This document shows positions 6,187 to 32,040 of a stretch of 34,380 nt of DNA, in pieces. The notes beneath the pieces were generated by a model. The model was given only the letters and a program-made list of their open reading frames with translations. It made no database searches and was not told where the DNA came from. Each line of letters begins with the position of its first letter. Positions within the stretch are counted from its first letter, which is position 1. The position numbers and the translations under genes were made by a program. Location of the stretch: assembly GCA_046050105.1 (NCBI GenBank), contig JBJOQE010000042.1:1-34380 (forward strand). The letters run 5' to 3'. The DNA is from Candidatus Parcubacteria bacterium. GTDB taxonomy: Bacteria > Patescibacteriota > Minisyncoccia > Phycocordibacterales > UBA918.

Positions 6187-6257
6187 AGCGGGGTAGAGGA
6201 GAGGTACCTCGGGAGGCTCATAACCTCCAGACCCCGGTTCGATTCCGGGCCCCGCAA
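6187..6257 (+). tRNA. tRNA-Met (anticodon CAT) with initiator-like features
   Basis: Hand-folded cloverleaf: agcgggg/ccccgca acceptor stem with a 1:72 A.A mismatch, an A11:T24 pair in the D stem, anticodon loop ctCATaa and T arm cccgg-ttcgatt-ccggg. The 3' segment CCCCGCAA matches the E. coli tRNA-fMet 3' end as I recall it. CCA is not encoded. Confidence 0.8.
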
Positions 6258-6265
6258 CACGCAAC

Positions 6266-6319: not shown

Positions 6320-6331
6320 TCCTCCATATGA

Positions 6332-6411
6332 ATCCCGTTAGAAATTGCATTGCAATTTCTAGGATGCATTCGGGACATACAGACTTATTGGGATCTAATT
6401 TCTAACGGGAT
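6332..6411 (+). promoter_or_regulatory. 5' leader with three mutually complementary arms; the third arm contains the start codon
   Basis: atcccgttagaaatt (6332-6346) is the perfect reverse complement of aatttctaacgggat (6397-6411). An inner perfect palindrome, tagaaattgca-t-tgcaatttcta (6339-6361), competes for the same left arm. Confidence 0.5.
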
Positions 6412-6799
6412 GAATAAAGGAACACTTGCCATTATCGGCATCACCGTACTTGTGGTTATTGGGCTTGGCTTTGTGGTGGCAAATCGAGAAACAGTCGCAG
6501 GCGAACTCGATGGCTTCGCGCAGTGCTTAGTGGAAAAAGAGGCGACCTTCTACGGTGCCTTCTGGTGCCCGCACTGCCAGAGTCAGAAGCGCATGTTTGG
6601 AAGCTCGGCAAAGCTCCTCCCGTATGTTGAGTGCTCACTCCCTGACGGAAAGACGCGTACACCTGTTTGTATCGAGAAGGGCATAGAGTCGTATCCAACC
6701 TGGATATTTAAGGATGGCACGCGCGAAAATGGAGAAGTGCCGCTCACCACTCTTGCTGAAAAGACTGGCTGCGAACTTCCCGCGGATACCGCTTCTTAA
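6410..6799 (+). CDS. Membrane-anchored thioredoxin-fold CxxC protein (VKOR-associated Trx-like type)
   Basis: The product has an N-terminal TM helix, then FYGAFWCPHCQSQKRMFG...YVEC...YPTW. This resembles the Trx-like domain fused to bacterial VKOR homologues. I chose the ATG at 6410 over the ORF-track start at 6350. Confidence 0.75.
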   Translation: MNKGTLAIIGITVLVVIGLGFVVANRETVAGELDGFAQCLVEKEATFYGAFWCPHCQSQKRMFGSSAKLLPYVECSLPDGKTRTPVCIEKGIESYPTWIFKDGTRENGEVPLTTLAEKTGCELPADTAS

Positions 6800-8851: not shown

Positions 8852-8927
8852 GTCGAGGTAGCTCAGTTGGTAGAGCACGGGACTCATAAGCCCGGGGTCG
8901 TGGGTTCAATCCCCACCCTCGACACCA
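8852..8927 (+). tRNA. tRNA with anticodon CAT (elongator Met or Ile2-lysidine type), CCA encoded
   Basis: Cloverleaf: gtcgagg/cctcgac acceptor stem, D arm gctc-agttggta-gagc, anticodon loop ctCATaa, T arm gtggg-ttcaatc-cccac and a terminal acca. Positions 31:39 form an A.G mismatch. Confidence 0.8.
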
Positions 8928-8962
8928 AGCGACAATTTGTAGCTTTTTTGCTATGATGTCGC

Positions 8963-9177
8963 TCGAGCACTTGCGGACTGAGTTTGCTATCGCAAATCGA
9001 CCGCTGCGCTCGGACGGTAGAGACAAAGCACAGTACTCGTTCGAGCACTTGCGGACTGAGTTTGCTATCGCAAACCGACCGCTGCGCTCAAGCACACACA
9101 ACGCACGATGATTGTTCGAGAGGCTGCGGACTGAATTTGCTACGCATACGCTACGCAAATCGACCGCTGCGCTCGGA
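8963..9177 (+). repeat. Three tandem copies of a 52-62 nt hairpin-forming repeat
   Basis: The copies lie at 8963-9014, 9041-9092 (nearly identical to the first) and 9116-9177 (carrying a 10-nt internal duplication). They are separated by unrelated 26- and 23-nt spacers. Confidence 0.85.
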
Positions 9178-9215
9178 CAAAGAATGAAAGCGAGCTTTCA
9201 TTCTTGTCCTCGCTT

Positions 9216-9289
9216 GCGGTCGTAGCTTAGCTGGTTAAAGCGCCGCCCTGTCACGGCGGAGACCGAGGGTTCAAGTCCCTTCGACCGCG
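9216..9289 (+). tRNA. tRNA-Asp (anticodon GTC)
   Basis: Cloverleaf: gcggtcg/cgaccgc acceptor stem, anticodon arm ccgcc-ctGTCac-ggcgg and T arm gaggg-ttcaagt-ccctt. Confidence 0.9.
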
Positions 9290-9295
9290 CAAATG

Positions 9296-9325
9296 AAAAT
9301 CCCAAAGTATACCTTTGGGATTTTT
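9296..9325 (+). terminator. Rho-independent terminator after tRNA-Asp
   Basis: The hairpin is aaaatcccaaag-tatac-ctttgggatttt, followed by a T-rich tail. Confidence 0.85.
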
Positions 9326-9328
9326 CTT

Positions 9329-9355
9329 ATTTGCGACGGACGAAGGGACTTGAAC
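9329..9355 (-). repeat. Inverted copy of the tRNA-Asp T-loop-to-3'-end segment plus trailer
   Basis: The reverse complement, gttcaagtcccttcgtccgtcgcaaat, differs from 9269-9294 (gttcaagtcccttcgaccgcgcaaat) by one substitution and one indel. Confidence 0.8.
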
Positions 9356-9398
9356 GGCGGAGCCGGTATACAAGACGACCGGAGGGAGTGCTTGAGGT

Positions 9399-9487
9399 GG
9401 AGAAATAGTGGCTACCCACTATTTCTCCGACCAGCGTTCTTATGAGCGAAGCGAATGAGAAAAAGCGGGTCAAGTCTCTTCGACTGC
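9399..9487 (+). repeat. Conserved core X (copy 1) joined to a tRNA-Asp 3'-end-like fragment
   Basis: It aligns with 18437-18528. The 13-bp hairpin differs only by compensatory changes and both copies share the 11-mer gagcgaagcga. The tail at 9470-9487 matches tRNA-Asp 9271-9288 at 16 of 18 positions. Confidence 0.75.
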
Positions 9488-9500
9488 AGGTCGATATAGT

Positions 9501-9568
9501 GAACACTTAGCACGATGCGAATACTTGGAGCATGTTGCGTAATGACTCGTGACCAAGTCCATGGCATA
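9501..9568 (+). repeat. Conserved core Y (copy 1)
   Basis: The 54-nt core aligns without gaps to 12326-12379. The flanks and the 11-nt loop gaatacttgga are conserved while the stem arms covary. Confidence 0.75.
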
Positions 9569-10365: not shown

Positions 10366-12020
10366 ATGGAAACCCATTCTCATGGTGGTCGCGGTCATTC
10401 GCGGCGCCAAGCTTCCGGCGGGCACTCTCGCGCCGGCACAGGCCCTTCACGAGGGCGTACATCAAGCCCATCACGCCGACCATACCGCCCTCATGGTGGT
10501 AGCAGCGTTGGTGGCATTATCCAGGCAGATGACATAGGCGATACCATCATTACCGTTGGTACTGACACCTCAGATATGCCGGACATTGCTCCTGGCGCCG
10601 TGTCGAGCTATACACGCCCTACGTATGCACAAGGTGGTTCGTCTCGCACTTCGCGCGGCGGTACTTCACGTGGTGGTCAGTCGAGCTTCCGCGGTGGCTA
10701 CTCGTCACAACGAGGCGATTCGCGCACCCGTGCGTGGTCGCCCGAATCGTCTACTCGTGGCGGATCTGCACGCGGCGGTTCATTCCGTAGCGGCGGAAAT
10801 CGTTCCGCAAACGATTTTAATCGTGGTTCTCGCGGAGGAAGTCGTGGCGGTGGCCGCGGACGACGTTTCGTTGCACCCGACCTCGACATTGAGCGTTTTA
10901 TTGAAAAATCCAAACGTGAAAGCGCAGCGCATAAAGCAAATGCTTCAGCAATACCAGACCATGTAGTGACCAATAACTTTGCGTCGCTCATTTCTCATCC
11001 GAAGCTTCGTGCGCAGGTGACAGCAAAGGGGTACTCAATCCCTACACCGATTCAGGATAAGGCCATTCCGCACGTGCGAGAGAAGAAGGACATTGTAGGT
11101 ATTGCTAATACCGGTACCGGTAAAACGGCTGCGTTCCTTATTCCGCTTATTGACCGTGCGTTGGTGCATGAGCATGAAAAGACGCTCATCGTGGTACCGA
11201 CCCGTGAGCTTGCGACACAGATTTACGACGAGTACATCGGCTTTGCGCGTGGCCTCGGTGTTTCTGCGGCGGTCGTCATTGGTGGTGCGAACATTCGCCC
11301 ACAAATTGCGTCTGTGCGTAATGCACGTTTCGTCATTGGTACGCCAGGACGTCTTAAAGACCTCATCGAGCGCCGGGCGCTCGACATGAAGAGCTTCACC
11401 CAATCGTGCTCGATGAAGCCGACCGTATGCTCGACATGGGCTTTATCCCCGACATTCGTTTCCTTATGGAGCGCATGCATCACGAGCGTCACTCACTCTG
11501 TTTCTCGGCAACTATGCCGCCTGAGATTGAGCGTCTCGTTGGTGAATTTTTGAAGTCACCAATTAGCGTATCGACGAAGACAGGCACGACTGCACACTCG
11601 GTAGAGCAGGGCGTTATCCGCATTACTGAAGGTGCGTCAAAGCTCGGGCTTCTCGAAGAATTACTCCGTGACCCAGCACTCGAGAAGGTGATTGTGTTTG
11701 GCGAAACCAAGCACGGTGTGGAGCGTCTCACCAAGCAGCTTATGGCACGTGGTGTGCGCGCTGAGTCTATTCACGGTAACAAGAGTTCAAACCAGCGTAA
11801 GCGTTCACTTGATGCATTTAAGAGCGGGCGTGTGCGCGTGCTGGTGGCAACCGACGTTGCCGCACGAGGACTCGATATCAATGATGTCTCACACGTCATC
11901 AATTTCGACGTTCCTCACTCATATGAGGACTACGTACACCGCATCGGCCGAACAGGCCGTGGTGGCAAGGAAGGGAAGGCGCTCACCTTTGTTGGTGGCG
12001 ACAACCGCGACAGTCGTTAA
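10366..12020 (+). pseudogene. DEAD-box ATP-dependent RNA helicase with an N-terminal Arg/Gly/Ser-rich region, split by a 1-nt frame change near 11403
   Basis: Frame 1 (10366-11553) carries motif I (NTGTGKTAAF), Ia (PTRELA) and Ib (TPGRL). Frame 0 (from 11406) carries VLDEADRMLDMGF, SAT, the HGN...QR segment and HRIGRTGR. This could be a genuine pseudogene, a sequencing indel or a frameshift. Confidence 0.85.
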
Positions 12021-12030
12021 TACGGCCCAC

Positions 12031-12068
12031 AAAAACCCCAAGAGGACATCCGTCATCTTGGGGTTTTT
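12031..12068 (+). terminator. Rho-independent terminator after the helicase
   Basis: The stem is aaaaaccccaag...cttggggttttt. Confidence 0.75.
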
Positions 12069-12147
12069 CGTATGGAGCATCTATTTTTCTAATATCAAGC
12101 TTCGTGGTATCATCGTGTCTGCAATTGAGAAATTGCGCGCAAAATAA

Positions 12148-12220
12148 GCCAACTTAGCTCAGTCGGTAGAGCACTTCCATGGTAAGGAAGAGGTCCCCGG
12201 TTCGATCCCGGGAGTTGGCT
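12148..12220 (+). tRNA. tRNA-Thr (anticodon GGT)
   Basis: Cloverleaf: gccaact/agttggc acceptor stem, anticodon arm cttcc-atGGTaa-ggaag and T arm cccgg-ttcgatc-ccggg. Confidence 0.9.
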
Positions 12221-12240
12221 CAAGGAGCGAAGCGACGTAG

Positions 12241-12292
12241 TGACAACTCAGTGCATGCCCTGCGGCATGCACGTCCGGGATCGAAAACCGGA
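12241..12292 (-). repeat. Inverted tRNA-Thr 3'-half copy interrupted by a perfect 9-bp hairpin
   Basis: The reverse complement of 12241-12250 is gagttgtcac, compared with gagttggctc (acceptor 3' strand gagttggct plus the first trailer nt). The reverse complement of 12274-12292 is tccggttttcgatcccgga, compared with the T arm. The hairpin gtgcatgcc-ctgc-ggcatgcac (12251-12272) lies between them. Confidence 0.6.
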
Positions 12293-12325
12293 GTATGTCG
12301 CTTTGCGACTACGAGGTGTGGTCAA

Positions 12326-12395
12326 GAACACTTAGTCTTTTGTGAATACTTGGAACAAAAGAATTAGTGATTCGTGACCGACCCGGGAGTTGGCT
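12326..12395 (+). repeat. Conserved core Y (copy 2) joined to an exact 14-nt copy of the tRNA-Thr(GGT) 3' end
   Basis: 12326-12379 aligns to 9501-9554. 12382-12395 (cccgggagttggct) is identical to 12207-12220. Confidence 0.8.
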
Positions 12396-12623
12396 CCGAG
12401 GAATGAAATGACGAGAAGGCAACTTTCGGGATCGAACAGATCCAGGGAGTGAGACATGCTGGGAGCATGTCGCAAGACCATGCCAGATATTTTATTGAGT
12501 TTACGAAATAAAATATCGACATGGTGTACAGATGCCGTAGGCAGGGCTCAAGGGTCGATGGTCATAACCGATTAAAGTGTTGGCTGCGTAGTGTAAAATA
12601 TCGCTCGTAGAAAAATAAAGTTT

Positions 12624-13168: not shown

Positions 13169-13237
13169 GTCTTACTCCTTCTCTGTGGATGCTATGTATA
13201 CCGTGAAAAATAACTTTTAGCAAGGACGCGCGTTTGA

Positions 13238-13279
13238 CCGCACACCCATCATTCGTATATACGAATGATGGGTGTGCGG
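13238..13279. promoter_or_regulatory. Perfect 42-nt palindrome abutting the prfB -10 element
   Basis: In ccgcacacccatcattcgtat|atacgaatgatgggtgtgcgg all 21 positions pair. TATACT follows at 13281-13286. Confidence 0.6.
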
Positions 13280-13293
13280 GTATACTACTCGTC

Positions 13294-14172
13294 ATGACTA
13301 AAGAGGAAGCAGCAGCGCGCATTGCCGAAATTGACGAAGCCATGCTTCGCGCAGATTTTTGGAGTGACCCCAAAGCGGCGCAGGCACTCCTTAAAGAGCG
13401 CGAAGAGCTTAAAAGCGCTGCAGAGGGAAAAGAAAAGTATGACCGCAATGATGCCGTGATGACTATCGTTTCGGGAGCGGGGGGAGATGATGCCGAAGAC
13501 TTTGCGCGTATGCTCCGCGAGATGTATGAACGCTATGCAGCGTCACGCAACTGGTCGGTCTTACTTGTAGATGAAAACAAAAACGACCACGGAGGGTATC
13601 GCAACCTCGTGCTCGAAATAGGGGGTAAGGGAGCGTATGGCGCACTCCGCAGTGAGTCGGGCGTGCACCGTCTGGTGCGCATGTCACCATTTAATGCATC
13701 AGGGAAACGCCAAACATCCTTTGTATTAGTAGAAGTATCTCCTAAGGTAGATGCAGAAGGTGAGTTGGCACTTCCAGATACCGAACTCGAAGTCTCTTTC
13801 GCGCGTTCAGGGGGCGCTGGCGGGCAAAATGTAAACAAACGCGAGACTGCGGTGCGCATTGTGCATGTGCCAACGAATATCTCAGTCCACGTCTCTTCCG
13901 AACGCAGCCAAGAGCAAAATAAAAAACGAGGACTCTCCTTGCTTGCAGGAAAGGTGTACGCTTTTAGAGAGGCACAACGCCTGCGAGAGCTTAAAGGTTT
14001 TTCTATCGAGCGCACCATGAAGATTGAGTGGGGAAGCCAAATTCGTTCCTACGTACTCCACCCGTATCAGCTCGTGAAAGATCACCGTACGGAGGTGGAG
14101 GTGCGCGATATTCACAAGGTACTCGAGGGAGACCTCAGTGCGTTTATAGACGAGGGTCCGCGCATAGAGTAG
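13294..14172 (+). CDS. prfB: Peptide chain release factor 2, short form (292 aa), without the +1 frameshift site
   Basis: It has the SPF tripeptide (RMSPFNASGKRQTSF) and the GGQ motif (SGGAGGQNVNK). I chose the ATG at 13294, because the ORF-track start at 13234 would translate the palindrome. Confidence 0.9.
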   Translation: MTKEEAAARIAEIDEAMLRADFWSDPKAAQALLKEREELKSAAEGKEKYDRNDAVMTIVSGAGGDDAEDFARMLREMYERYAASRNWSVLLVDENKNDHGGYRNLVLEIGGKGAYGALRSESGVHRLVRMSPFNASGKRQTSFVLVEVSPKVDAEGELALPDTELEVSFARSGGAGGQNVNKRETAVRIVHVPTNISVHVSSERSQEQNKKRGLSLLAGKVYAFREAQRLRELKGFSIERTMKIEWGSQIRSYVLHPYQLVKDHRTEVEVRDIHKVLEGDLSAFIDEGPRIE

Positions 14173-14235: not shown

Positions 14236-14916
14236 ATGATATATTTTGATAAAGTCTCGAAGGTGTATAACGGCGATTCAGTCGCCCTTCATGACATCAC
14301 CTTCCAGGTATCACCCGGTGAATTTATCTCAATTGTTGGACACTCAGGCGCAGGAAAGACCACGCTCCTTAAAATGCTTATTGCCGAAGACCGTCCGTCA
14401 GACGGGAAGGTGTTTTTTGAGTCGCTCGATATTCACTCTATTCCGAAGAGTAGGCTCCCACAGTATCGCCGTAAGCTCGGTACCGTGTTTCAAGACTTTA
14501 AACTCCTCCCTCATAAAACTGCATTTGAAAACATCGCGTTTGCCATGGAAGCAAATGGTCGCTCCGACCACGAAATTGCTGAGAATGTACCGCAAGCGCT
14601 TGAGCTCGTCGATTTGGGCACCAAGATGTGGAACTTTCCCCACGAACTTTCAGGTGGTGAGAAGCAGCGCGTAGCGATTGCGCGGGCCATTGTGAATCAG
14701 CCCGATGTCATTATTGCCGACGAACCAACGGGCAACCTCGACCCCATTGCTACTTACGAAGTGGTGCAAATTTTAAAGAAGATAAACGACCTCGGCACGA
14801 CCGTCATCATGACCACGCACAATAAGGGAGTCATCGATGCACTCGGCCGCCGCGTGATTACGATGGATGAGGGGAAAGTAATTCGCGATGACAACGAGGG
14901 GAAGTACGTGCTGTAA
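14236..14916 (+). CDS. ftsE: Cell division ATP-binding protein FtsE
   Basis: It has Walker A (GHSGAGKTT), the ABC signature (LSGGEKQR) and Walker B (IIADEP), and lies upstream of ftsX. I set the start by homology at MIYFDKVSKVY. Confidence 0.9.
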   Translation: MIYFDKVSKVYNGDSVALHDITFQVSPGEFISIVGHSGAGKTTLLKMLIAEDRPSDGKVFFESLDIHSIPKSRLPQYRRKLGTVFQDFKLLPHKTAFENIAFAMEANGRSDHEIAENVPQALELVDLGTKMWNFPHELSGGEKQRVAIARAIVNQPDVIIADEPTGNLDPIATYEVVQILKKINDLGTTVIMTTHNKGVIDALGRRVITMDEGKVIRDDNEGKYVL

Positions 14917-18017: not shown

Positions 18018-18084
18018 ATGGTATGGTATTCACGCGCGAAAGCGCTTTTTTAGAACATCGCAGCTCGTAGTGAAGGGAAGGTAT

Positions 18085-18135
18085 ATTGCCAGATCGTCGT
18101 ATGGTGGGAATGAAACACCATCTGCATGTGGCACA
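18085..18135 (+). pseudogene. Degenerate 5' portion of a tRNA-Gln copy
   Basis: attgccagatcgtc (18085-18098) is identical to 18152-18165. The following sequence resembles the D arm and anticodon arm (caccatctgcatgtgg compared with caccctctggaggtgg) but cannot form a cloverleaf and has no T arm. Confidence 0.6.
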
Positions 18136-18154
18136 CAGATTGTAGAAGAAACAT

Positions 18155-18225
18155 TGCCAGATCGTCTAATGGTAGGACGCCACCCTCTGGAGGTGGTTAT
18201 CTTGGTTCGAGTCCAAGTCTGGCAA
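18155..18225 (+). tRNA. tRNA-Gln (anticodon CTG)
   Basis: Cloverleaf: tgccaga/tctggca acceptor stem, anticodon arm ccacc-ctCTGga-ggtgg and T arm cttgg-ttcgagt-ccaag. Confidence 0.85.
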
Positions 18226-18231
18226 CACGGA

Positions 18232-18258
18232 GCAAAATGCCCTTCGGGGCATTTTTGC
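18232..18258 (+). terminator. Rho-independent terminator after tRNA-Gln
   Basis: The hairpin is aaaatgccc-ttcg-gggcatttt plus T. Confidence 0.8.
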
Positions 18259-18376
18259 GTAGTGTTGCTAGACGGCGCAGCGTTCGCAGAACGCGTTGCG
18301 CGGACTCGAAAGGTTGTCGATAGTTTCGACCATAGGGAGAAAATATCATACAACCTGAACTGGGTTCTGTAAGAAC

Positions 18377-18393
18377 CGAGTCCAAGTCTGGCA
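18377..18393 (+). repeat. Exact 17-nt direct copy of the tRNA-Gln 3' end
   Basis: cgagtccaagtctggca is identical to 18208-18224. It is preceded by ggttc and a 9-nt insertion. Confidence 0.85.
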
Positions 18394-18436
18394 TATAGAA
18401 CCTGTACGGCGGAGACGGGGTACCCTCTGGGTCGTC

Positions 18437-18528
18437 GGAGAAACAGTGAACACTCACTGTTTCTCCGTCCAGCGTTCTTGACGAGCGAAGCGAGTTTAGA
18501 AAAAGCGGGGACGAGTCCAAGTTTGGCA
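18437..18528 (+). repeat. Conserved core X (copy 2) joined to a tRNA-Gln 3'-end-like fragment
   Basis: It aligns to 9399-9487. The tail at 18512-18528 matches 18208-18224 at 16 of 17 positions. A tRNA-Asp anticodon-arm-like piece lies upstream at 18401-18420. Confidence 0.75.
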
Positions 18529-18620
18529 GCCAACTCGTACTAGCACGATAAGCGTTAATGTAACGCTTATCTAATTTTGCATAGACTTAGCAAAGTCTCA
18601 AAAAGCGATATAATTAAGGT

Positions 18621-19181
18621 ATGGAAATTCTTTGTCTCATTACGGATTTCATTTTTGGATACGACTTCCAAGTTTCATTTTGGTCTGGAATTGCTATGTC
18701 AGCGGTTGTTGGCTTTGTTGTATACCAATATACAGATGTGTTTAAGTCGCCAAACTTAGTATTTGTTGTTAAACAAAATGGGTTATATCGAGATACTATT
18801 CAACTAACTAAAGATGGTAAAAAGTACGAAGCGCGTTTTCAGTTTGCTATTAAAAATATTGGTAACAAGGCAATAAAACATAATGAAGGATACTGGCATT
18901 TATACTTAGATGTGAAGAATCCAACAATATTTTCAGCACCAGAAGAAATAAATCATAGCAGAGGTCAGATAAATGGAACTATCTACCCCAGTTCCTTTTT
19001 TGATATAGGACTAGTATATGAACTTGAAATTAATGAGGAGAATTTAAGTAAAGCTGAAATACCATATTTCTTTAGCACTGATTATGGTCAGTTTCCGGAA
19101 ACTGCAGTAATAAATCAAGAAACTGGGGAGGTTCTGTGGAAAGATATGGGCTATATAAAGTTTGAAGTACCAAAGATTTAA
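18621..19181 (+). CDS. Hypothetical protein (186 aa) with an N-terminal TM segment, AT-rich
   Basis: TATAAT (18609-18614) lies 6 nt upstream of the ATG. I recognise no domain. Confidence 0.55.
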   Translation: MEILCLITDFIFGYDFQVSFWSGIAMSAVVGFVVYQYTDVFKSPNLVFVVKQNGLYRDTIQLTKDGKKYEARFQFAIKNIGNKAIKHNEGYWHLYLDVKNPTIFSAPEEINHSRGQINGTIYPSSFFDIGLVYELEINEENLSKAEIPYFFSTDYGQFPETAVINQETGEVLWKDMGYIKFEVPKI

Positions 19182-19296
19182 TCGAGTGCACGAGACGCGT
19201 CGAAATTGAATTCTAAAACATTGCAACTCTGTCAAGCAGGATAAGGTGTCAAGCGGTTCTAGCTCGAGTGTTGCCAGACGCGATATAATAAAGAGC

Positions 19297-19851
19297 ATGG
19301 AAGGTCACATAGAAAAGCAATCAGCGTTTAGAATAGAAACGCCTAAAGTAGGTGATGAAATTGGTTTGGCCCCAATGCATATTCAGGCTTGGAAGGAAAC
19401 TTATGTGACTCCCGAATCGGGGCTTACAGAAGATATGGTAGATGAGATGTTGGGGCACATGCTGACAAATACCGATTTCAGGAAAAATACTATAGCTGAA
19501 TCTCTGGAAAATCCGGGTAAAGTTTTGTATAGGATTGTAAGGAATAACAAAGGAGAGATAGTTGGGTTCATGCATGGTTCAAAAAATGAAGAGTCCAATC
19601 AGCTCGAAGGAATCTATCTGCTTGATGAGGTGAAGGGGTCAGGTACGGGAGGAAAGCTGATGGAAGAATTTCTGGCCTGGGTAGATAAGAATAAGCCAAG
19701 CAATCTTGAAGTCTTTTGCTTCAACGATAGAGCGCTTGGATTCTATACAAAATATGGATTTGTAAAAACAGACAAACCAAGTCAAATGTGGAGAGACAAA
19801 CTGCCTTTCATTGAAATGGTGAGACCTGCTGACATACCTAAAGAAAACTAA
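19297..19851 (+). CDS. GNAT-family N-acetyltransferase
   Basis: The acetyl-CoA motif region is LLDEVKGSGTGGKLMEEF...ALGFYTKYGF. TATAAT (19284-19289) lies 7 nt upstream of the chosen ATG. Confidence 0.75.
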   Translation: MEGHIEKQSAFRIETPKVGDEIGLAPMHIQAWKETYVTPESGLTEDMVDEMLGHMLTNTDFRKNTIAESLENPGKVLYRIVRNNKGEIVGFMHGSKNEESNQLEGIYLLDEVKGSGTGGKLMEEFLAWVDKNKPSNLEVFCFNDRALGFYTKYGFVKTDKPSQMWRDKLPFIEMVRPADIPKEN

Positions 19852-20036
19852 GCGCCTGAGACGCCTTGCTCTGAATATAGTCAGACGGAGTAAGTCGGGC
19901 TTGACCGACCACGGTTCCAGCGCCAGACGGCGCAGCGTTCGTAGAATGCTACTGTTGCGGCCGTTTGCTGTTATGACGAGAACAACTTAGCGCTTTCTCC
20001 CCACTCCAAGTACAATCAATTACTAACGTATACCCC

Positions 20037-24334: not shown

Positions 24335-24687
24335 GTGAATCTTTTAAATCACAGTCGCAAAAGCCAAGGGGTCCGTGGCATGTCGAGCCAGGGAGTCCTG
24401 TTGATGCACTTGAGAGACGGCACGCATTTGAGCGTGGCACGATTGCCGATATGGTAAGCTCACTTCGTACCTTCGCAAAAAGTGAAGGGTTTACCTATGA
24501 TATTGAGGATGTTGAAGGAGGACAAGATATACAGGTGCCACCCGAATGCTTGGCTGCCACGCTCGGCCACTTAAAGCCACTTCTCAAAGACGCTAACGCT
24601 CTCCTCGAACAGCATAATCAACAGTTTCGTGTGCGTGTTCATTTGCACGGCACCCTCCTTGAACTTCGCGTCGTTTCTCACTCGTGA
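24331..24687 (+). CDS. Hypothetical protein (118 aa)
   Basis: Its start overlaps the MFS stop codon (ATGA). Confidence 0.5.
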   Translation: MSESFKSQSQKPRGPWHVEPGSPVDALERRHAFERGTIADMVSSLRTFAKSEGFTYDIEDVEGGQDIQVPPECLAATLGHLKPLLKDANALLEQHNQQFRVRVHLHGTLLELRVVSHS

Positions 24688-24733
24688 TTGCTATCCACAC
24701 TCCCTTGGTGGGGTAGGGTATACTATAGATACT

Positions 24734-25960
24734 ATGAATTACGTATCAATTTCTTTGCGTCGCTTCGGTCTGTGTGCACTCGCTCTCTCGGTTGTTTTTT
24801 GTATATACGCTACCACAGCACACGGAGCCACAGTTTGCACGCTTGATCGCGATTTGGAGTTTGGTGTCATCGGAGAAGATGTCCGTTGCTTGCAGCAATA
24901 TCTGAACACTAACGGATTTGTGATAGCCGACATTGGAGCGGGCTCACCGGGAAAGGAAACAGGAGAATATAAAGCACTCACTGAGCAGGCGGTGATGAAG
25001 TGGCAACGTGCACAGGGTATTGCGCCAGCAACAGGCTATTTCGGTACAAAATCTCGCGCTATGTACAGCACCATGGTAGGTGGTGAAGTGAAGGGGGCGG
25101 CAACCACAAATGAATCAGTACTCGAAACACAAAAGAAAGCACTTGAAGACAAAATAAAATCTCTCCAGGACATGCAACCTACGGTAGTACCCCCCAAACC
25201 GGTAAGTACACCTGCAGTTTCAAGTGACGAAAAAGAAGCGCGCGACACAATTATGGAAGCACTTGATGCTCTCGATGAAGCAGAAGATGTGGTGGATGGT
25301 GCTGACAGCGCGCCCGATATTGCGTCTGCAACTGACAACCTTAATGATGCGCGGGATGATCTGTTTGACGCCATGAAGGCCTTCTTTGCGAAGGAATACG
25401 AAGAAACTATTGAAATGGCAGAAGATGCACGAGGAAATGCAGAAGATGCTATTGATGATGCTGGTGGTTCAGAGGATGAAAATGATGCTCAAGAAAAAAT
25501 TGATGAGGTAGATAACGCTATTGATGACGCTGAAGATCGCATCGATGAGGCTGATGCAAAAGGCGACGACACTGACCGGGCAGAAGACTTGCTTGATGAG
25601 GCAAAAGACAAGCTAGATGAGGCAGAGGATGCGTTTGACGATGAAGAATACGAAGATGCAATAGACCTTGCTGATGAAGCAGATGATTTGGTCGACGATG
25701 CCATCGATAGTATCGGTGAGAGTGATGATACAGCGGACTTACTAGAAGAAGTGCAGGATGACTTGGCACGCGCACAGAAGCAAGTCAAAAATGCACAAGA
25801 TGATGATGAAGACGTGGGAGATGCAGAAGATTTACTCGACGAGGCTGAGGACGCACTTAACGATGCTGAAGATGCACTTGATAACGATGATGAAGACGAG
25901 GCTGAAGACTTTATCGACGAGGCGAAAGATCTCATCGCAGAGGCGCTCGATGAATTCTAA
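24734..25960 (+). CDS. Secreted peptidoglycan-binding-domain protein with a long Asp/Glu/Ala-rich repeat region
   Basis: A signal/anchor sequence is followed by a PG_binding_1-like segment (GEDVRCLQQYLN...AVMKWQRAQGI...GYFG). About 270 aa of acidic repeats follow (AEDLLDEAxDxL..AEDA). Confidence 0.7.
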   Translation: MNYVSISLRRFGLCALALSVVFCIYATTAHGATVCTLDRDLEFGVIGEDVRCLQQYLNTNGFVIADIGAGSPGKETGEYKALTEQAVMKWQRAQGIAPATGYFGTKSRAMYSTMVGGEVKGAATTNESVLETQKKALEDKIKSLQDMQPTVVPPKPVSTPAVSSDEKEARDTIMEALDALDEAEDVVDGADSAPDIASATDNLNDARDDLFDAMKAFFAKEYEETIEMAEDARGNAEDAIDDAGGSEDENDAQEKIDEVDNAIDDAEDRIDEADAKGDDTDRAEDLLDEAKDKLDEAEDAFDDEEYEDAIDLADEADDLVDDAIDSIGESDDTADLLEEVQDDLARAQKQVKNAQDDDEDVGDAEDLLDEAEDALNDAEDALDNDDEDEAEDFIDEAKDLIAEALDEF

Positions 25961-30312: not shown

Positions 30313-32040
30313 ATGACACAAGACTTAGCACTTGAGATTTTGAAGACAGGTGCGAATGTGTTCCTTACCGGTGAGCCAGGGAGCGGTAAGACACATACAG
30401 TGAATCGATATATTGAGTACCTCACCGAGCGCGGCGTAGATGTCTCAGTCGCTGCTTCTACCGGCATTGCTGCAACTCACGTGGGCGGCATGACTATTCA
30501 CTCATGGAGCGGCATTGGTATTCGCTCCACGCTCTCAGAATGGGAGCTCGACCAGCTTTCTGAGAAAGAGCGCCTCGTAAAAAGACTCACTGCAGCGCGT
30601 GTACTTATCATTGACGAAATTTCAATGCTTGGGAAAGATACGCTCGATACTGTCGAAGCTGTGTGTAGGCGACTTCGTCGTTCGCATGAGCCATGGGGAG
30701 GCTTGCAGGTAGTTTTTGTCGGCGACTTCTTCCAGCTACCACCCGTTGAGCGCGCTATGGGCATGTCGAGCGCACCACAGAGTGAAGATTTGTTTGTGGA
30801 CGTTGATATGGATGCGCCGCAAACAAATTTCGCGTACCACTCGTCTTCCTGGAAGCGAGCGAAGCCTATCGTGTGCTACTTAACCGAGCAGCACCGTCAA
30901 GAAGATGAATCGTTTCTCGCTATCCTTTCTGCACTCCGCCGAGGTGAGGTGGGAGAAGAAGTGAAGGTAGTGCTTCGCGAGCGCGCGGTGGTGCCGCCTG
31001 AAGAAGTGCTTACGCGACTCTTTCCTAAAAACCAAAACGTCGACCGCATGAACGACACGGAGCTTGGGCGCCTTCCTGGCTCACCGCGCGTATTTCAAAT
31101 GTCATCGCATGGCTTCGCGCCAGTGGTTGAAGGGTTGAAGAAAAACTGTCTTTCCCCTGAGGCGCTCGCGCTCAAGGAGGGTGCAAAAGTAATGTTTACC
31201 AAAAATGCCATCGACGGAAAATATGTAAATGGCACACTTGGCGAAGTGATTAGCTTCGCGCGTCCAGGCGGGCAGCCGGTGGTACGCACGCGCGACGGCC
31301 GCACCATTGAAGTGGCACTTGCCGAGTGGACCATCGAAGACCAGGGGAAAGTAGTTGCAGGTCTTGAGCAATTTCCTCTCCGTCTCGCCTGGGCTATTAC
31401 CGTACACAAAAGCCAAGGTATGTCACTTGACGCGGCGGTGATTGATCTTCGCACCGCGTTTGAATATGGCCAGGGGTATGTGGCACTTTCGCGTGTACGC
31501 ACGCTCGACGGGCTGTTCCTCGAAGGGTTTAACGAGCGATCGCTCCAGGTGCATCCCGAAGTGCTGGAGGTTGATGCCGAGTTCCGCACGCTTGCCGAAG
31601 ATGCAGAGGTTGCCTTCGAGGGAATGGAAGACACCGAAATTAAGGATATGCAAAAGACGTTCCTTAAAGCGATTGGCGGCTCAGAAGAGGTGGTGGCGCG
31701 CACCAAGGGCGAACGTAAAGAGAAGATCTCCACCTTCATGGAAACGTGTGCACTCGTGAAAGAGGGGAAGACGCTCGAAGAAGTAGCGAAAGAACGTAAG
31801 CTTACGGTAGGCACTATCGTGGCGCATCTCGAGCGACTCATTGAAGAAGGTGACCTCGACCCCGCACTCGACATTGAGCACGTAAAGCCAAGTGAGGAAA
31901 ACCTCACCAAGATGCTTGCAGCACTCCGGAAGGTGCAAGACGAAGACGGCAAAGTGCCGCTCACTCCCGCGCGTGAACTCCTCCAGAACCGCTACTCGTT
32001 TGAAGACCTCCGGTTGGCGCGGTTGTTTTTGATAGATTGA
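30313..32040 (+). CDS. Pif1/RecD-family SF1B helicase with a C-terminal HTH domain
   Basis: It has Walker A (GEPGSGKT), LIIDEISML, VGDFFQLPPV, TVHKSQGMS and YVALSRV. The C-terminal segment LTVGTIVAHLERLIEEG is HTH-like. Confidence 0.85.
   Translation: MTQDLALEILKTGANVFLTGEPGSGKTHTVNRYIEYLTERGVDVSVAASTGIAATHVGGMTIHSWSGIGIRSTLSEWELDQLSEKERLVKRLTAARVLIIDEISMLGKDTLDTVEAVCRRLRRSHEPWGGLQVVFVGDFFQLPPVERAMGMSSAPQSEDLFVDVDMDAPQTNFAYHSSSWKRAKPIVCYLTEQHRQEDESFLAILSALRRGEVGEEVKVVLRERAVVPPEEVLTRLFPKNQNVDRMNDTELGRLPGSPRVFQMSSHGFAPVVEGLKKNCLSPEALALKEGAKVMFTKNAIDGKYVNGTLGEVISFARPGGQPVVRTRDGRTIEVALAEWTIEDQGKVVAGLEQFPLRLAWAITVHKSQGMSLDAAVIDLRTAFEYGQGYVALSRVRTLDGLFLEGFNERSLQVHPEVLEVDAEFRTLAEDAEVAFEGMEDTEIKDMQKTFLKAIGGSEEVVARTKGERKEKISTFMETCALVKEGKTLEEVAKERKLTVGTIVAHLERLIEEGDLDPALDIEHVKPSEENLTKMLAALRKVQDEDGKVPLTPARELLQNRYSFEDLRLARLFLID

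Follow-up and report, generated by a model that had tools for sequence, protein, structure and literature searches.

Behind the tRNA-Asp and tRNA-Gln genes of a Candidatus Parcubacteria bacterium stand two similar stretches of DNA, each running into a near-copy of the 3' end of the tRNA gene just upstream. The question is what kind of element they are. The window, as the whole stretch of DNA analysed is called here, spans 34,380 nucleotides. A sequence-only reading had aligned the two stretches and left three readings of them unranked. The alignment is reproduced here: 9399-9469 and 18437-18509 are 83.6% identical over 73 columns (E 1.2e-13; repeat family D10), both contain the 13-bp hairpin (9399-9428 and 18437-18466), and the stems differ at two pairs, each a compensatory change (T-A to C-G; G-C to A-T). 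As claimed, the tails that follow agree with tRNA-Asp at 16 of 18 positions (9470-9487) and with tRNA-Gln at 16 of 17 (18512-18528). Exact copies of the 11-mer GAGCGAAGCGA lie at 9444, 12225 and 18483 and nowhere else in the window; tolerating one mismatch gives 6 matches against 0.72 expected, a number reached in 0 of 100 shuffles. The window segments are members of a widespread and hitherto undescribed family of structured cassettes. These cassettes look like a new, integrase-less means of inserting DNA, at times including genes, at tRNA genes.

Three Arrays in the Window

The array behind tRNA-Asp (9216-9560) contains the following features.

9216..9290, + strand: tRNA-Asp(GTC), anchor and target (ARAGORN; Rfam tRNA, 72 bits)
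3' part of 9216..9290, + strand: tRNA-Asp from the T-loop onward, left copy of the direct repeat
9295..9325, + strand: terminator hairpin (terminator scan), tip of the long imperfect palindrome 9269-9355
9337..9355, + strand: reverse-complement (antisense) copy of tRNA-Asp, T-loop to acceptor 3' strand (inverted repeat I18)
9356..9469, + strand: X core copy 1 (covariance-model match at 9347-9479, 68.9 bits, E 9e-14)
9470..9487, + strand: forward (sense) copy of the tRNA-Asp 3' end, T-loop to acceptor, 16/18 identical to 9271-9288
9489..9560, + strand: 3' half of a second, Z-type core, GGTCGA to GAACACTTAG, a hairpin and TAATGACTCGTGACC (repeat D17, blastn)

The palindrome 9269-9355 passes from the tRNA-Asp 3' end through the trailer, the hairpin and the anti-trailer into the antisense copy, and blastn matches 9296-9355 to 9324-9269 of the opposite strand (82% over 60 nt). 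Within it, the 19 nt of I18 (9337-9355) are complementary to 9269-9287 at 18 of 19 positions (95%), and the antisense copy ends in TTGAAC, the complement of G53-T54-T55-C56 and onward. The forward copy 9470-9487 pairs with 9337-9355 and closes the X core with a stem in the minimum free energy fold. The core itself contains CGGCGGAG, the 5' strand of helix P1, along with a P2 hairpin at about 9364-9397, the hairpin of 13 bp at 9399-9428 and a conserved arm, P4/P3, of sequence CCAGCGTTCTTATGAGCGAAGCGAATGAGAAAAAGCGGG and tipped by GCGAAGC; its predicted fold has -69.5 kcal/mol (z -5.6). The Z-type half-core beyond the forward copy is a decayed older unit, after which comes AAGTCC, a remnant of the tRNA-Asp T-loop. 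Its segment 9501-9532 repeats as 12326-12357 (D17), a match that blastn extends to 9501-9554 versus 12326-12379, and its motif recurs in the Z units of two related loci, L031 and L033. Three 78-nt repeats between tRNA-Met and tRNA-Asp were rejected as decayed units, their similarity to tRNA ends being no better than that of shuffled sequence.

Behind tRNA-Gln (18155-19949), units of two core families stand in series.

18155..18226, + strand: tRNA-Gln(CTG), anchor of the second array (ARAGORN), 100% identical to L031 tRNA-Gln
18264..18310, + strand: antisense copy of the tRNA-Gln 3' end, GTTGCTAGAC ... GGACTCGAA (sequence, k-mer marking)
18311..18376, + strand: Y-type core, AGGTTGT, a hairpin and ACAACCTGAACTG GGTTC TGTA AGAAC
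18377..18393, + strand: forward copy 1 of the tRNA-Gln 3' end, 17/17 identical to 18208-18224 (D13)
18407..18511, + strand: X core copy 2 (covariance-model match at 18429-18520, 45 bits, E 4e-8; alignment to copy 1)
18512..18528, + strand: forward copy 2 of the tRNA-Gln 3' end, 16/17 identical to 18208-18224
19922..19949, + strand: remnant of another split tRNA-Gln antisense copy, GCCAGAC plus hairpin (D19, 89% to 18267-18294)

The antisense copy is interrupted by a hairpin at 18274-18301, and related pieces lie at 19922-19949 (D19) and at 15826-15880 of L031. The Y-core architecture, with covarying stems, is also present in the Gln and Thr units of L035, the Asp unit of L031 and the Thr unit of L033. 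In X core copy 2, CGGCGGAG is accompanied by a short P2 hairpin, the hairpin of 13 bp at 18437-18466 and the P4/P3 arm; an intact antisense copy is missing before it, with GAAC as the sole remainder. Forward copy 2 is the oldest, displaced tRNA end. A displaced terminator follows it at 18547-18571, and window 18512-18614 matches L031 14402-14505 at 85.6% as an orthologous old tail and flank. The remnant at 19922..19949 lies 1.7 kb downstream, beyond two genes that resemble cargo, one a 186-aa ORF and the other a GNAT gene; the equivalent antisense remnant in L031 lies upstream of a SET gene.

The third array, behind tRNA-Thr (12148-12437), is decayed.

12148..12221, + strand: tRNA-Thr(GGT), anchor (ARAGORN)
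12225..12235, + strand: exact 11-mer GAGCGAAGCGA (sequence context)
12242..12285, + strand: antisense copy of the 3' end of tRNA-Thr with a hairpin inserted at 12250-12274 (k-mer marking)
12286-12379, + strand: Z-type core ending in TTAGTGATTCGTGACC, clustering with the L033 Gln Z unit
12380-12397, + strand: forward copy of the tRNA-Thr 3' end, GACCCGGGAGTTGGCTCC (forward-copy match)
12417..12437, + strand: second antisense copy of the 3' end of tRNA-Thr, opening a further decayed unit (inverted repeat I20)

Here, GAGCGAAGCGA is the GCGAAGC mini-hairpin tip of a palindrome joining the tRNA-Thr end to its antisense copy. The hairpin insertion in that copy falls exactly at the acceptor/T-stem junction, and the same split design is found in L002, L005, L006, L018, L024, L025 and L035. 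The 21 nt of I20 (12417-12437) are complementary to 12200-12220 at 86%.

Unit Architecture and Junctions

The full order of a unit is tRNA, terminator hairpin, reverse-complement copy of the T-loop-to-acceptor segment, structured core and forward copy. It recurs in every copy, and the flanks fit the local tRNA at about 25 loci with 14 anticodons. Cores are about 100 nt long (~70-130 nt) and fall into the families X, Y and Z; a whole cassette measures ~180 bases, with units as small as ~130-180 nt. The sequence-only reading had placed the boundaries elsewhere: the true unit starts at the tRNA's own T-loop and includes the terminator and the inverted tRNA-end copy. The upstream reverse-complement copies and the Gln forward copy at 18377-18393 were absent from that reading.

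The junctions are the same in all three core families, the forward copy starting at C56 +/-2 and the antisense copy ending at T54/G53. Among 50 tRNAs from 26 Patescibacteria sources, about 30 are followed by forward copies matching at 14 or more of 18 positions; upstream of these tRNAs, Thr paralogues excepted, no forward copy was found, against a background of 9-12 of 18. The tRNA-end matches obey a simple grammar, (anti sense)n. Since the antisense copy is the exact complement of the tRNA 3' strand, turning the acceptor G.U pairs of tRNA-Tyr and tRNA-Ala into Watson-Crick pairs, it was not copied from the tRNA 5' strand. A hairpin at the acceptor/T-stem junction often divides this copy, which in several units, including that of X core copy 2 in the window, has decayed or been lost.

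Antisense and forward copies are 90-95% Watson-Crick over aligned positions and form the closing stem in predicted folds. There is no compensatory upkeep of these stems after insertion: mismatches are mainly transversions, and an RNA-type wobble bias is absent (G.T 6 versus A.C 10). The lack of upkeep and the decayed or lost antisense copies count against the insertion of cassettes. Forward copies decay as the distance from the tRNA grows. Tandem arrays are present in L029 (181-nt period), L010, L030 and L004, and arrays mix the X, Y and Z families. All 28 covariance-model matches have the orientation of the tRNA, and flip/flop behaviour of the kind expected of hairpin telomeres and parvovirus-like termini was rejected on this ground. 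A terminator comes before every unit and another after the last forward copy; a promoter/terminator scan found no sigma-70-like promoter between terminator and core. Archaeal-type bulge-helix-bulge or group I introns at the junctions were dismissed on inspection, with no supporting pairings and too small a unit.

A Proposed Model for Insertion at the tRNA T-loop

We give about an even chance to the explanation that the units are non-autonomous, site-specific insertion cassettes that in Patescibacteria target tRNA genes at their T-loop and 3' end. A unit consists of four parts: a replacement tRNA copy from C56 to the acceptor end; a trailer and intrinsic terminator or, in large versions, cargo genes followed by a terminator; an exact reverse complement of the tRNA 3' strand ending at T54/G53 and often hairpin-split; and a structured core of ~70-130 nt (X, Y or Z). 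The original tRNA 3' end lies displaced directly downstream. An intact tRNA is thus always restored, and older units are pushed outward. On the tRNA-sense strand, the reverse copy may pair with the forward copy in a stem of ~17-20 bp that reproduces the target duplex, capped by the Y-shaped core. This folded antisense-core-sense structure would be the recombination site, which a recombinase or nuclease encoded elsewhere in the genome would recognise, with exchange with the tRNA at about T55|C56. In form it would be loosely akin to integron attC, which folds as a single strand, and to the CTXphi attP hairpin.

Core Fold and the Possibility of a Small RNA

Covariance-model alignment supports a Y-shaped fold of the core, with double changes in 17 of 27 pairs. 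In this alignment 94.5% of cells are paired, against 33-42% in slid controls, and the observed values were reached in 0 of 500 shuffles. The helices of further copies thus covary, and the two cores known from the sequence-only reading are joined by others that all abut 3' fragments matching the local tRNA. The 13-bp hairpin, which that reading took for the conserved core, turns out to be a lineage-specific module; about 20 other copies have GAGCCGC, the P1 3' strand, in its place. What it described as a tRNA-Asp anticodon-arm-like piece is CGGCGGAG, the 5' strand of P1, present in copies of other genomes beside Tyr, Arg, Ala, Glu, Ser, Val, Pro and Gln tRNAs. Since this piece is universal among family copies, a chimera of Asp and Gln sequences is unsupported.

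Each of the 21 cores folds better as the tRNA-sense strand than as the complementary one, a bias that fits RNA or single-stranded DNA alike and is partly due to the invariant half of the core. P2 hairpins have 6 G.U pairs on the tRNA-sense strand versus 1 on the other. From one Patescibacteria lineage to another, the core hardly varies in its 3' half. A part conserved like a tRNA across classes counts against the insertion of cassettes and also fits a functional RNA.

Some of these features suit structured small RNA genes, an alternative that we consider unlikely. Transcription would read through past the tRNA terminator, and an RNA made of antisense copy, core and sense copy would be cut out, either by RNase P and RNase Z, the stem copying the acceptor/T-arm helix, or by RNase III acting on the ~17-20 bp duplex. 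The RNA would have a cellular role tied to that tRNA, and arrays would arise by local duplication and gene conversion. The strong covariation, the folding on the tRNA-sense strand and the constant tRNA orientation speak for such genes, as does the near-invariant 3' half, which a molecule in contact with a conserved partner would be expected to show. Lying exactly at the acceptor/T-stem junction, the optional hairpin gives a tRNA-like outline, and there is a terminator after the last forward copy. However, a terminator stands ahead of every unit and no promoter-like site precedes the core. Processing would not need the stem to match the neighbouring tRNA, yet it always does, and the closing stem decays without compensation and without G.U bias. 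Moreover, units are gained, lost and replaced between close relatives, some of them enclosing 1.7-6 kb of genes, and several unrelated-looking cores (X, Y and Z) have identical ends.

Known RNA families give no match to the core. At gathering thresholds, an Rfam 15 scan of the window passes only for the 6 tRNAs, and permissive matches (E up to 10) do not overlap 9356-9469 or 18407-18511; weak miRNA-precursor matches at 9266-9357 merely mirror the long palindrome. ARAGORN finds no tmRNA or permuted tRNA. As for a tRNA-like cloverleaf, ARAGORN and Rfam pick up genuine tRNAs only, and in predicted folds the T-loop sequence of the unit is paired with its complement and forms no loop. A protein-coding origin was also rejected: opposite-strand ORFs of 100-190 aa cluster merely as translations of conserved DNA, the lengths of P2 (22 to 50 nt) do not differ by multiples of three, and there is covariation in the helices. 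Searches of the full-text literature turned up no account of elements like these, which is no proof that none exists; as far as Rfam and the literature allow a test, the statement that the core belongs to no described family holds.

Distribution Across Genomes

Pattern scans recovered the same core at about 25 loci, behind tRNAs with 14 anticodons. All taxonomically named loci are Patescibacteria metagenome-assembled genomes, and genome matches among 185,579 species searched were Patescibacteria in 7 of 7 cases. Five lineage names are represented: Saccharibacteria, Vogelbacteria, Parcubacteria, Minisyncoccia and Paceibacterota. Of the 24 true loci, about 10 are no more than ~400 nt from the end of a contig, as is usual for multi-copy repeats. 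Any estimate of prevalence is partly biased, since X content was the ground on which most loci were selected; in a less biased sample not chosen for X (the window, L031, L033 and L035), about 10 of 19 tRNAs have units. Nearly identical cores stand behind different tRNAs (Arg in L016, Ser in L028 and Ala in L030). This counts against the insertion of cassettes, as an element colonising a new tRNA would have to change its forward copy and its reverse copy together.

A phage or plasmid origin is not supported: 2.9 million viral contigs, 50,697 phage records and 72,556 plasmids yielded 0 copies. Pattern matches in IMG/VR are chance matches in a lysine/alanine-rich phage gene (L008 and L009), which is also behind the L012, L014, L019 and L026 matches.

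Variable Content and the Search for a Recombinase

Unit content varies between syntenic relatives, and the boundaries are fixed. From identical tRNA-Gln to orthologous tail, the Gln locus holds Y and X units in the window (285 nt) versus two genes in L031 (1.66 kb); elsewhere it holds one Z unit (L033) or a Y, X' and Y series (L035). In the window a spacer of 402 nt separates two tRNA-Thr genes, against 118 nt in L031 and 12 nt in L033. The cargo in L007 is a type III restriction-modification system with a hydrolase (~6 kb), bounded by a forward copy on one side and by an end of terminator, antisense copy, Z core and forward copy on the other. Mobility is deduced from comparisons between species that are ~80-90% identical in CTP synthase; no excised circle was seen, nor an empty and filled pair within one population.

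The proteins near the units give no candidate enzyme. No recombinase or transposase domain was found by Pfam in 26 larger ORFs (20 in the window and 6 in L007) or in the precomputed Pfam annotation of called genes in L031-L036, and a crude search for the tyrosine-recombinase motif found none in 160 ORFs of at least 130 aa in ~230 kb around arrays. All-against-all clustering of 387 ORFs from 23 loci revealed no recurrent protein family beside units, and an associated protein was rejected on the finding of housekeeping synteny only. The neighbours are housekeeping genes, such as those for MiaA, the CCA-adding enzyme, ParB and CTP synthase.

Variable gene content downstream of tRNAs would also be left by ordinary scars, that is, attL/attR remnants and arm regions of integrase islands or prophages at tRNAs with the rest deleted. 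Such events are classically recognised by direct repeats of the tRNA 3' end, a restored tRNA and a stack of partial tRNAs in which the oldest is the most distant (10.1101/2020.12.28.424599), and this pattern is present here. We nevertheless hold scars to be quite improbable. Deletion remnants would not share end nucleotides in ~30 independent units, their core would not covary as a folded single strand, and the inverted target copy has no classical att counterpart. Pfam and motif searches of the checked ORFs and called genes near arrays gave no integrase or fragment of one, and the viral contigs, phage records and plasmids searched held no copy. With a covarying core of ~100 nt, exact junctions and no integrase, a plain integrative-element scar is inadequate, and among the readings that had been left unranked the favoured one is the miniature mobile element anchored to tRNA 3' ends.

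Relation to Known Systems

Several known systems share parts of the design of the proposed insertion cassettes. Integrons hold promoterless, recombinase-less cassettes in one orientation, inserted serially at one site. Their attC site is an imperfect palindrome at the cassette 3' end, with structure conserved above sequence and the crossover by GTT/AAC. As in attC, one strand of the unit folds better, and same-orientation arrays end in a palindrome that folds as a single strand. In contrast to integrons, insertion is at a tRNA T-loop instead of an attI beside intI. No intI with attI and Pc was found next to the arrays, which start at a tRNA, and the units lack RYYYAAC/GTTRRRY boxes; AAC/GTT triplets alone agree, for example in ACTTGAAC and GTTCAAG. 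In addition, the arms of the unit palindrome are target copies and its 'loop' is the conserved Y-shaped core.

Tentatively, the units may form an integron-like cassette system of a new kind in Patescibacteria, in which all cassettes would insert at the T-loop of ordinary tRNA genes. At one extreme would be empty units of 130 nt, at the other cassettes with several cargo genes, for example restriction-modification systems. The self-made site, folded from a single strand, would consist of an inverted and a direct target copy capped by the Y-shaped core. A host-encoded enzyme would move the cassettes, or the core itself might be catalytic or a guide.

tRNA-integrating genomic islands, tycheposons and their satellites, which are tyrosine-integrase elements, are flanked by a full and a partial tRNA, and successive insertions stack with the oldest furthest away (10.1101/2020.12.28.424599). 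Like these islands, the units insert at the tRNA 3' part, bring a replacement tRNA end and carry variable cargo; they too are flanked by a full tRNA and a partial 3' copy, with the tRNA restored. Unlike the islands, they can be as short as ~130-180 nt, have an inverted target copy and place a folded core against the repeat, and no tyrosine or serine recombinase was found inside them in the window, L007 or L031-L036. The classical attP/attL/attR anatomy has neither an inverted target copy nor a conserved folded core. CTXphi and IMEX have two inverted target copies that fold into a target-like duplex, and they use host XerCD with no recombinase of their own (PMC3442271). The units share inverted target copies able to form such a duplex and, with CTXphi, a regenerated target that permits tandem arrays. 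They differ in that the target is a tRNA T-loop, not dif, and the cassettes, of 0.13-6 kb, are without phage genes. MITEs, Correia, RPE and REP/BIME elements are likewise short, multi-copy, intergenic, hairpin-forming and bounded by inverted repeats. In the units, by contrast, the inverted arms change with the local tRNA, and insertion takes place at one defined position within tRNA genes; constant terminal inverted repeats with a short target-site duplication, as in MITEs, were not found.

In TnpB omega-RNAs of IS200/IS605 elements, the 3' segment is flank. The units resemble IS200/IS605 PATEs and these omega-RNAs in being small, non-autonomous and strand-specific with structured single-strand ends, and in having a constant folded part directly beside a flank-derived segment of ~16-20 nt. 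They might encode a guide RNA of the bridge-RNA, omega-RNA or sgRNA type for an RNA-guided recombinase or nuclease encoded elsewhere, a notion with, in our judgement, a slim chance. The core would be the protein-binding scaffold, the 5' antisense or 3' forward segment a programmable guide, and insertion or cleavage would be directed to the tRNA gene beside the conserved T-loop GTT. A constant scaffold with flanking 17-20-nt segments that vary with the target would suit this role, the GTT that always stands directly 5' of the match to the forward copy could be an adjacent motif, and the 3' segment is simply flank, as in TnpB omega-RNAs. However, the two 'guides' are mutually complementary and would be locked in a stem, and the intact tRNA target persists at an occupied locus, where a nuclease guide would be self-targeting. 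No promoter was found between terminator and core, and Rfam gives no match to known omega-RNA or HEARO families. Bridge RNAs of IS110 and omega-RNAs lie at the end of an element beside a gene for TnpB, IscB or a DEDD recombinase; none of these genes, nor one for Cas, adjoins any unit. Compared with IS200/IS605, the units also have an inverted target copy and a long direct target repeat, which IS200/IS605 do not make, and there is no TnpA or TnpB near them and no Rfam or sequence similarity.

Very improbable are replication errors at terminators, by which hairpin template switching would yield inverted duplications of tRNA ends with no dedicated element: quasi-palindrome correction is a known mutational process and the palindrome is continuous from the terminator via the trailer into the tRNA, but this would not explain why different Patescibacteria lineages share conserved covarying cores, why the inverted copy has its fixed end at T54/G53 or why a forward copy lies past the core, and with the conserved core against it this process could survive only as a contributor to the renewal of the inverted copy.

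Implications for Patescibacteria

Patescibacteria make up a large share of bacterial diversity and are seemingly poor in classical mobile elements. If the units are insertion cassettes, about half of the tRNA genes in many of these genomes would be docking sites for undescribed cassettes, which would explain integrase-less variable islands beside tRNAs in reduced genomes. The recombination site or guide would then be made from the target's own sequence in both orientations. With X, Y and Z, several new conserved families of nucleic-acid structure are gained, and covariance models for them would improve the annotation of Patescibacteria genomes. The units probably break metagenome assemblies at tRNAs and may be miscalled as partial tRNAs or small ORFs. 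The system is testable in cultivated Saccharibacteria. If the integron-like reading is true, the cassettes would be a major unnoticed route of gene flux and genome plasticity.

Unit architecture in the window

The window is a whole contig, 34,380 nt long, from a 'Candidatus Parcubacteria' MAG and carries six tRNA genes. The sequence-only reading had singled out two look-alike segments, whose alignment spans 73 columns with 83.6% identity (E 1e-13; also direct-repeat family D10). Its further observations were reproduced: both segments form a 13-bp hairpin whose two stem differences are both compensatory, both cores are followed by near-copies of the upstream tRNA 3' end (Asp 16/18, Gln 16/17), and the 11-mer GAGCGAAGCGA has three occurrences. 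The Rfam check of the segments gave no match at curated or permissive thresholds. The supposed tRNA-Asp anticodon-like piece before each core is CGGCGGAG, the 5' strand of core helix P1, which is universal in the core family.

Overlooked in that reading was an antisense copy of the tRNA-Asp end 5' of core 1, as were the additional forward copy and the hairpin-split antisense copy at the Gln locus. The Thr locus likewise has a reverse-complement copy of its tRNA end (inverted-repeat family I20). The unit order is tRNA, trailer, terminator hairpin, anti-trailer, antisense copy, core, forward copy, and the tRNA end, terminator and antisense copy form a single long palindrome. At core 1, the antisense and forward copies are predicted to close the core (-69.5 kcal/mol, z -5.6).

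Unit components in the window
9337-9355: antisense tRNA-Asp copy, against 9269-9287, 18/19 (inverted-repeat family I18)
9399-9469: first look-alike segment, within core 1
9489-9554 and 12286-12379: remnants of the Z core, whose family pattern is AGGCGGAAAG-hairpin-TTGAGCCGGGGTCGAGAGCACTTAG-hairpin-CTTAGTGAYTCGTGACC
18264-18310: hairpin-split antisense copy, Gln locus
18311-18376: window example of the Y core, whose family pattern is AGGTTGT-hairpin-ACAACC TGAACTG stem-TGTA-stem
18377-18393: additional perfect forward copy, Gln locus
18437-18509: second look-alike segment

Distribution and insertion site

Exact-pattern scans covered 185,579 species genomes and a metagenome collection. The genome scan returned seven loci, all in Patescibacteria, under five lineage names (Saccharibacteria, Vogelbacteria, Parcubacteria, Minisyncoccia, and Paceibacterota). 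Of 21 loci from the metagenome scan, 17 are true copies and four are chance matches in a phage protein gene; IMG/VR matches all came from that same gene and were rejected. No unit copies were found in IMG/VR, GenBank phages, or PLSDB plasmids. A contig end lies within ~400 nt of ~10 of 24 true loci, as expected of multi-copy repeats, and in two (L003, L027) it cuts inside the core.

Wherever the fetched DNA is long enough on each side, the architecture is identical. At loci with enough flanking DNA, antisense and forward flanks both match the local tRNA, 45-70 nt upstream. The anchoring tRNAs serve Leu, Trp, Tyr, Arg, Ser, Ala, Glu, Val, Gln, Pro, and Asp and between them carry 14 anticodons. 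The forward copy begins at C56 of the T-loop (+/-2); the antisense copy runs as far as the complement of T54/G53. The antisense copy complements the 3' strand exactly, acceptor-stem G.U pairs becoming Watson-Crick, so the 3' strand rather than the tRNA 5' strand served as its template. In many units a hairpin is inserted precisely at the acceptor/T-stem junction of the antisense copy. Hairpins with a CTGGGAG loop, a small conserved module, recur in split antisense copies and Z-type P2 positions of many units (for example window 12455-12472 and loci L005, L021, L031, L033, L035).

With a forward copy scored at ≥14/18 within 700 nt (background 9-12/18), ~30 of 50 tRNAs from 26 Patescibacteria sources have a downstream copy of their own end, and none has one upstream, the paralogous Thr pair excepted. 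Hits taken in order are repeated antisense-then-forward pairs. In a less biased set picked by CTP-synthase synteny (the window and its relatives L031, L033, and L035), units stand at ~10 of 19 tRNAs. Genes for tRNA-related enzymes lie 0.1-0.7 kb from some X units, namely CCA-adding enzyme (L016 3787-5442) and MiaA (L001 3810-4709; L022 1384-2319), which may be chance in compact genomes.

Core structure

The X consensus from an alignment of 19 cores (A1) reads ..TCGAAC GGCGGAG (variable hairpin P2) GAG CCGC GTCC AGCG TTCTTAT GAGCGAAGCGA ATTAGAA AAAGCG GGAC / CGAnTCC... RNAalifold gives a Y shape, with a closing stem, P1 then P2, and P4 then P3. P1 varies as CGGC/GCCG, CGAC/GTCG, CAGC/GCTG, and CGCC/GGCG; P4 is GTCC/GGAC, and P3 has a T.T mismatch and a GCGAAGC tip. 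The covariance model R1 finds 28 copies in the fetched DNA, with diverged matches behind tRNA-Gln (L035), tRNA-Thr (L033), and tRNA-Ser (L005), and none in reverse ('flop') orientation. In the R1-based alignment, whose fit to the model makes its statistics lean toward structure, 94.5% of cells are paired and both-side changes occur in 17 of 27 pairs. None of 500 shuffles attains any of the observed measures, and sliding the partners lowers pairing to 33-42%.

In 21/21 cores the better fold is that of the tRNA-sense strand rather than its complement (mean 5.9 kcal/mol), and variable P2 hairpins have six G.U pairs on the tRNA-sense strand versus one on the other; the strand that folds is thus the tRNA-sense one. 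The GCGAAGC tips match a DNA mini-hairpin of known unusual stability, a hint at a DNA fold rather than evidence for one.

At least three recognizable cores (X, Y, and Z) lie between the same ends, plus several singletons. X, the X-like X', and Z are probably homologous because they share the P1/P4 logic and a CTTA/TTAG motif, with compensatory differences. The 13-bp hairpin of the window occupies the place of the usual P1 3' strand, resembles a hairpin module (AGAAAT...ATTTCT) of the Z family and of split antisense copies, and marks a sub-lineage common to both window copies.

Gain, loss, arrays, and cargo

Syntenic relatives of the window were fetched via the CTP synthase gene. In L031, tRNA-Gln is 100% identical to that of the window, and positions 14402-14505 are orthologous (85.6%) to the window's last Gln forward copy and its adjoining flank (18512-18614). 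What these two fixed boundaries enclose differs: Y+X units (285 nt) in the window, a 358-aa ORF plus a SET-domain gene (1.66 kb) in L031. The tRNA-Gln content is one Z unit in L033 and tandem Y, X', Y in L035. The Thr-Thr spacer is 12 nt long in L033 and 402 nt long in the window; in L031 it measures 118 nt and holds one truncated unit. Downstream of tRNA-Asp lie X, a Z remnant, and a pterin dehydratase gene in the window, and Y, Z, an MFS transporter, and a DUF2238 gene in L031, the two rejoining at the DEAD-box helicase.

Locus L007 has a type III restriction-modification system and a hydrolase (~6 kb) between a forward copy and a terminator-antisense-Z-core-forward-copy end; no integrase was found in this region. 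Locus L029 has identical units in tandem with a 181-nt period. Forward copies are best preserved beside the tRNA and decayed farther out. At L004 470-710, the second of two tandem X units takes its antisense copy and tail from another tRNA (T-stem CTGGG/CCCAG), which suggests that the T-loop-like sequence of one unit, or the DNA beside it, can receive another unit. A partial 5'-end duplicate of tRNA-Gln (18077-18109, TTGCCAGATCGTCGTATGGTGGGA, 82% to 18145-18177) lies ~45 nt upstream of the real gene, so rearrangement there is not confined to the 3' side.

Other features of the window

8945-9178: three ~78-nt tandem repeats, each with ..TCGAGCACTTGCGGACTGAGTTTGCTATCGCAAATCGACCGCTGCGCTC.., between tRNA-Met (8852-8927) and tRNA-Asp, conserved in L031; as Met/Asp 3'-end copies they score no better than shuffled sequence
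13238-13279: perfect 21+21-nt palindrome (CCGCACACCCATCATTCGTAT then ATACGAATGATGGGTGTGCGG) right at the beginning of the release-factor ORF (13234-14172; PCRF and RF-1 domains), with a 125-aa ORF just upstream
6327-6416: 30-nt inverted repeat, 80% complementary, 30-nt spacer, downstream of tRNA-Met 6187-6258 and overlapping the next ORF start; not a unit because it lacks tRNA-end copies
10366-12147: DEAD-box helicase region split into overlapping ORFs (10366-11553, 11406-12020, 11692-12147), a single 350-aa ResIII/DEAD/Helicase_C gene in L031; may be a frameshift or pseudogene
24629-25960: 443-aa protein with a peptidoglycan-binding domain and DUF4398 repeats; coding stretch highly repetitive, Asp/Glu/Ala-rich, 21-nt periodicity (direct-repeat families D1, D2)
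30313-32040: PIF1-like helicase with C-terminal HTH_40, the sole window gene loosely linked to mobile-DNA/rolling-circle machinery; it lacks an HUH domain and shows no evident link to the units

Nature of the unit

The unit is widespread, multi-copy, strand-specific, structurally constrained, and inserted at one defined tRNA-gene site. With a unit in place the tRNA is restored; units pile up in arrays, can carry genes, and vary between relatives. We infer a non-autonomous site-specific cassette. Its recombination site would be the folded antisense-core-forward-copy structure, whose stem copies the target duplex, and exchange with the tRNA sense strand would occur at about the T55-C56 junction through an enzyme encoded elsewhere. 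By analogy with integron attC sites (PMC2727003) and CTXphi (PMC3442271), we reason that a one-strand exchange involving the folded sense strand, with replication afterwards, would yield exactly the observed order and orientation. Both target copies must be renewable because near-identical cores sit behind different tRNAs, and retargeting is the weakest point of the cassette reading; insertion via the conserved T-loop and then palindrome correction could achieve it.

Alternatively, the unit may be a read-through small RNA processed like a tRNA. Folding-strand bias cannot separate RNA from single-stranded DNA, and no promoter-like site was found between terminator and core; stems formed by antisense and forward copies decay with neither a compensatory nor a wobble bias (G.T 6 vs. 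A.C 10), and we consider this explanation unlikely. Ordinary integrase scars are improbable: the footprint is like that of tRNA-integrating islands and tycheposons, but the unit has no integrase, and the 20 larger window ORFs scanned and the flanks examined contain no recombinase, transposase, reverse transcriptase, or RNA-guided nuclease domain. We give equally little credence to a guide RNA serving an unlinked enzyme; no recurrent protein family was found adjoining units. By-products of replication template-switching are very improbable for so constrained a structure.

The cassette reading finds parallels in integron and IMEX systems, which are likewise recombinase-less and palindrome-based. 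However, the unit lacks the intI/attI and R boxes of integrons, its target is not the dif of IMEX, and it has no constant terminal repeats. Nor did any Rfam family match it. No prior description of such units was found within the literature searched. The footprint belongs to a class already known in kind, site-specific insertion at tRNA genes; there is a substantial, though less than even, chance that the mechanism of the unit is new in kind.
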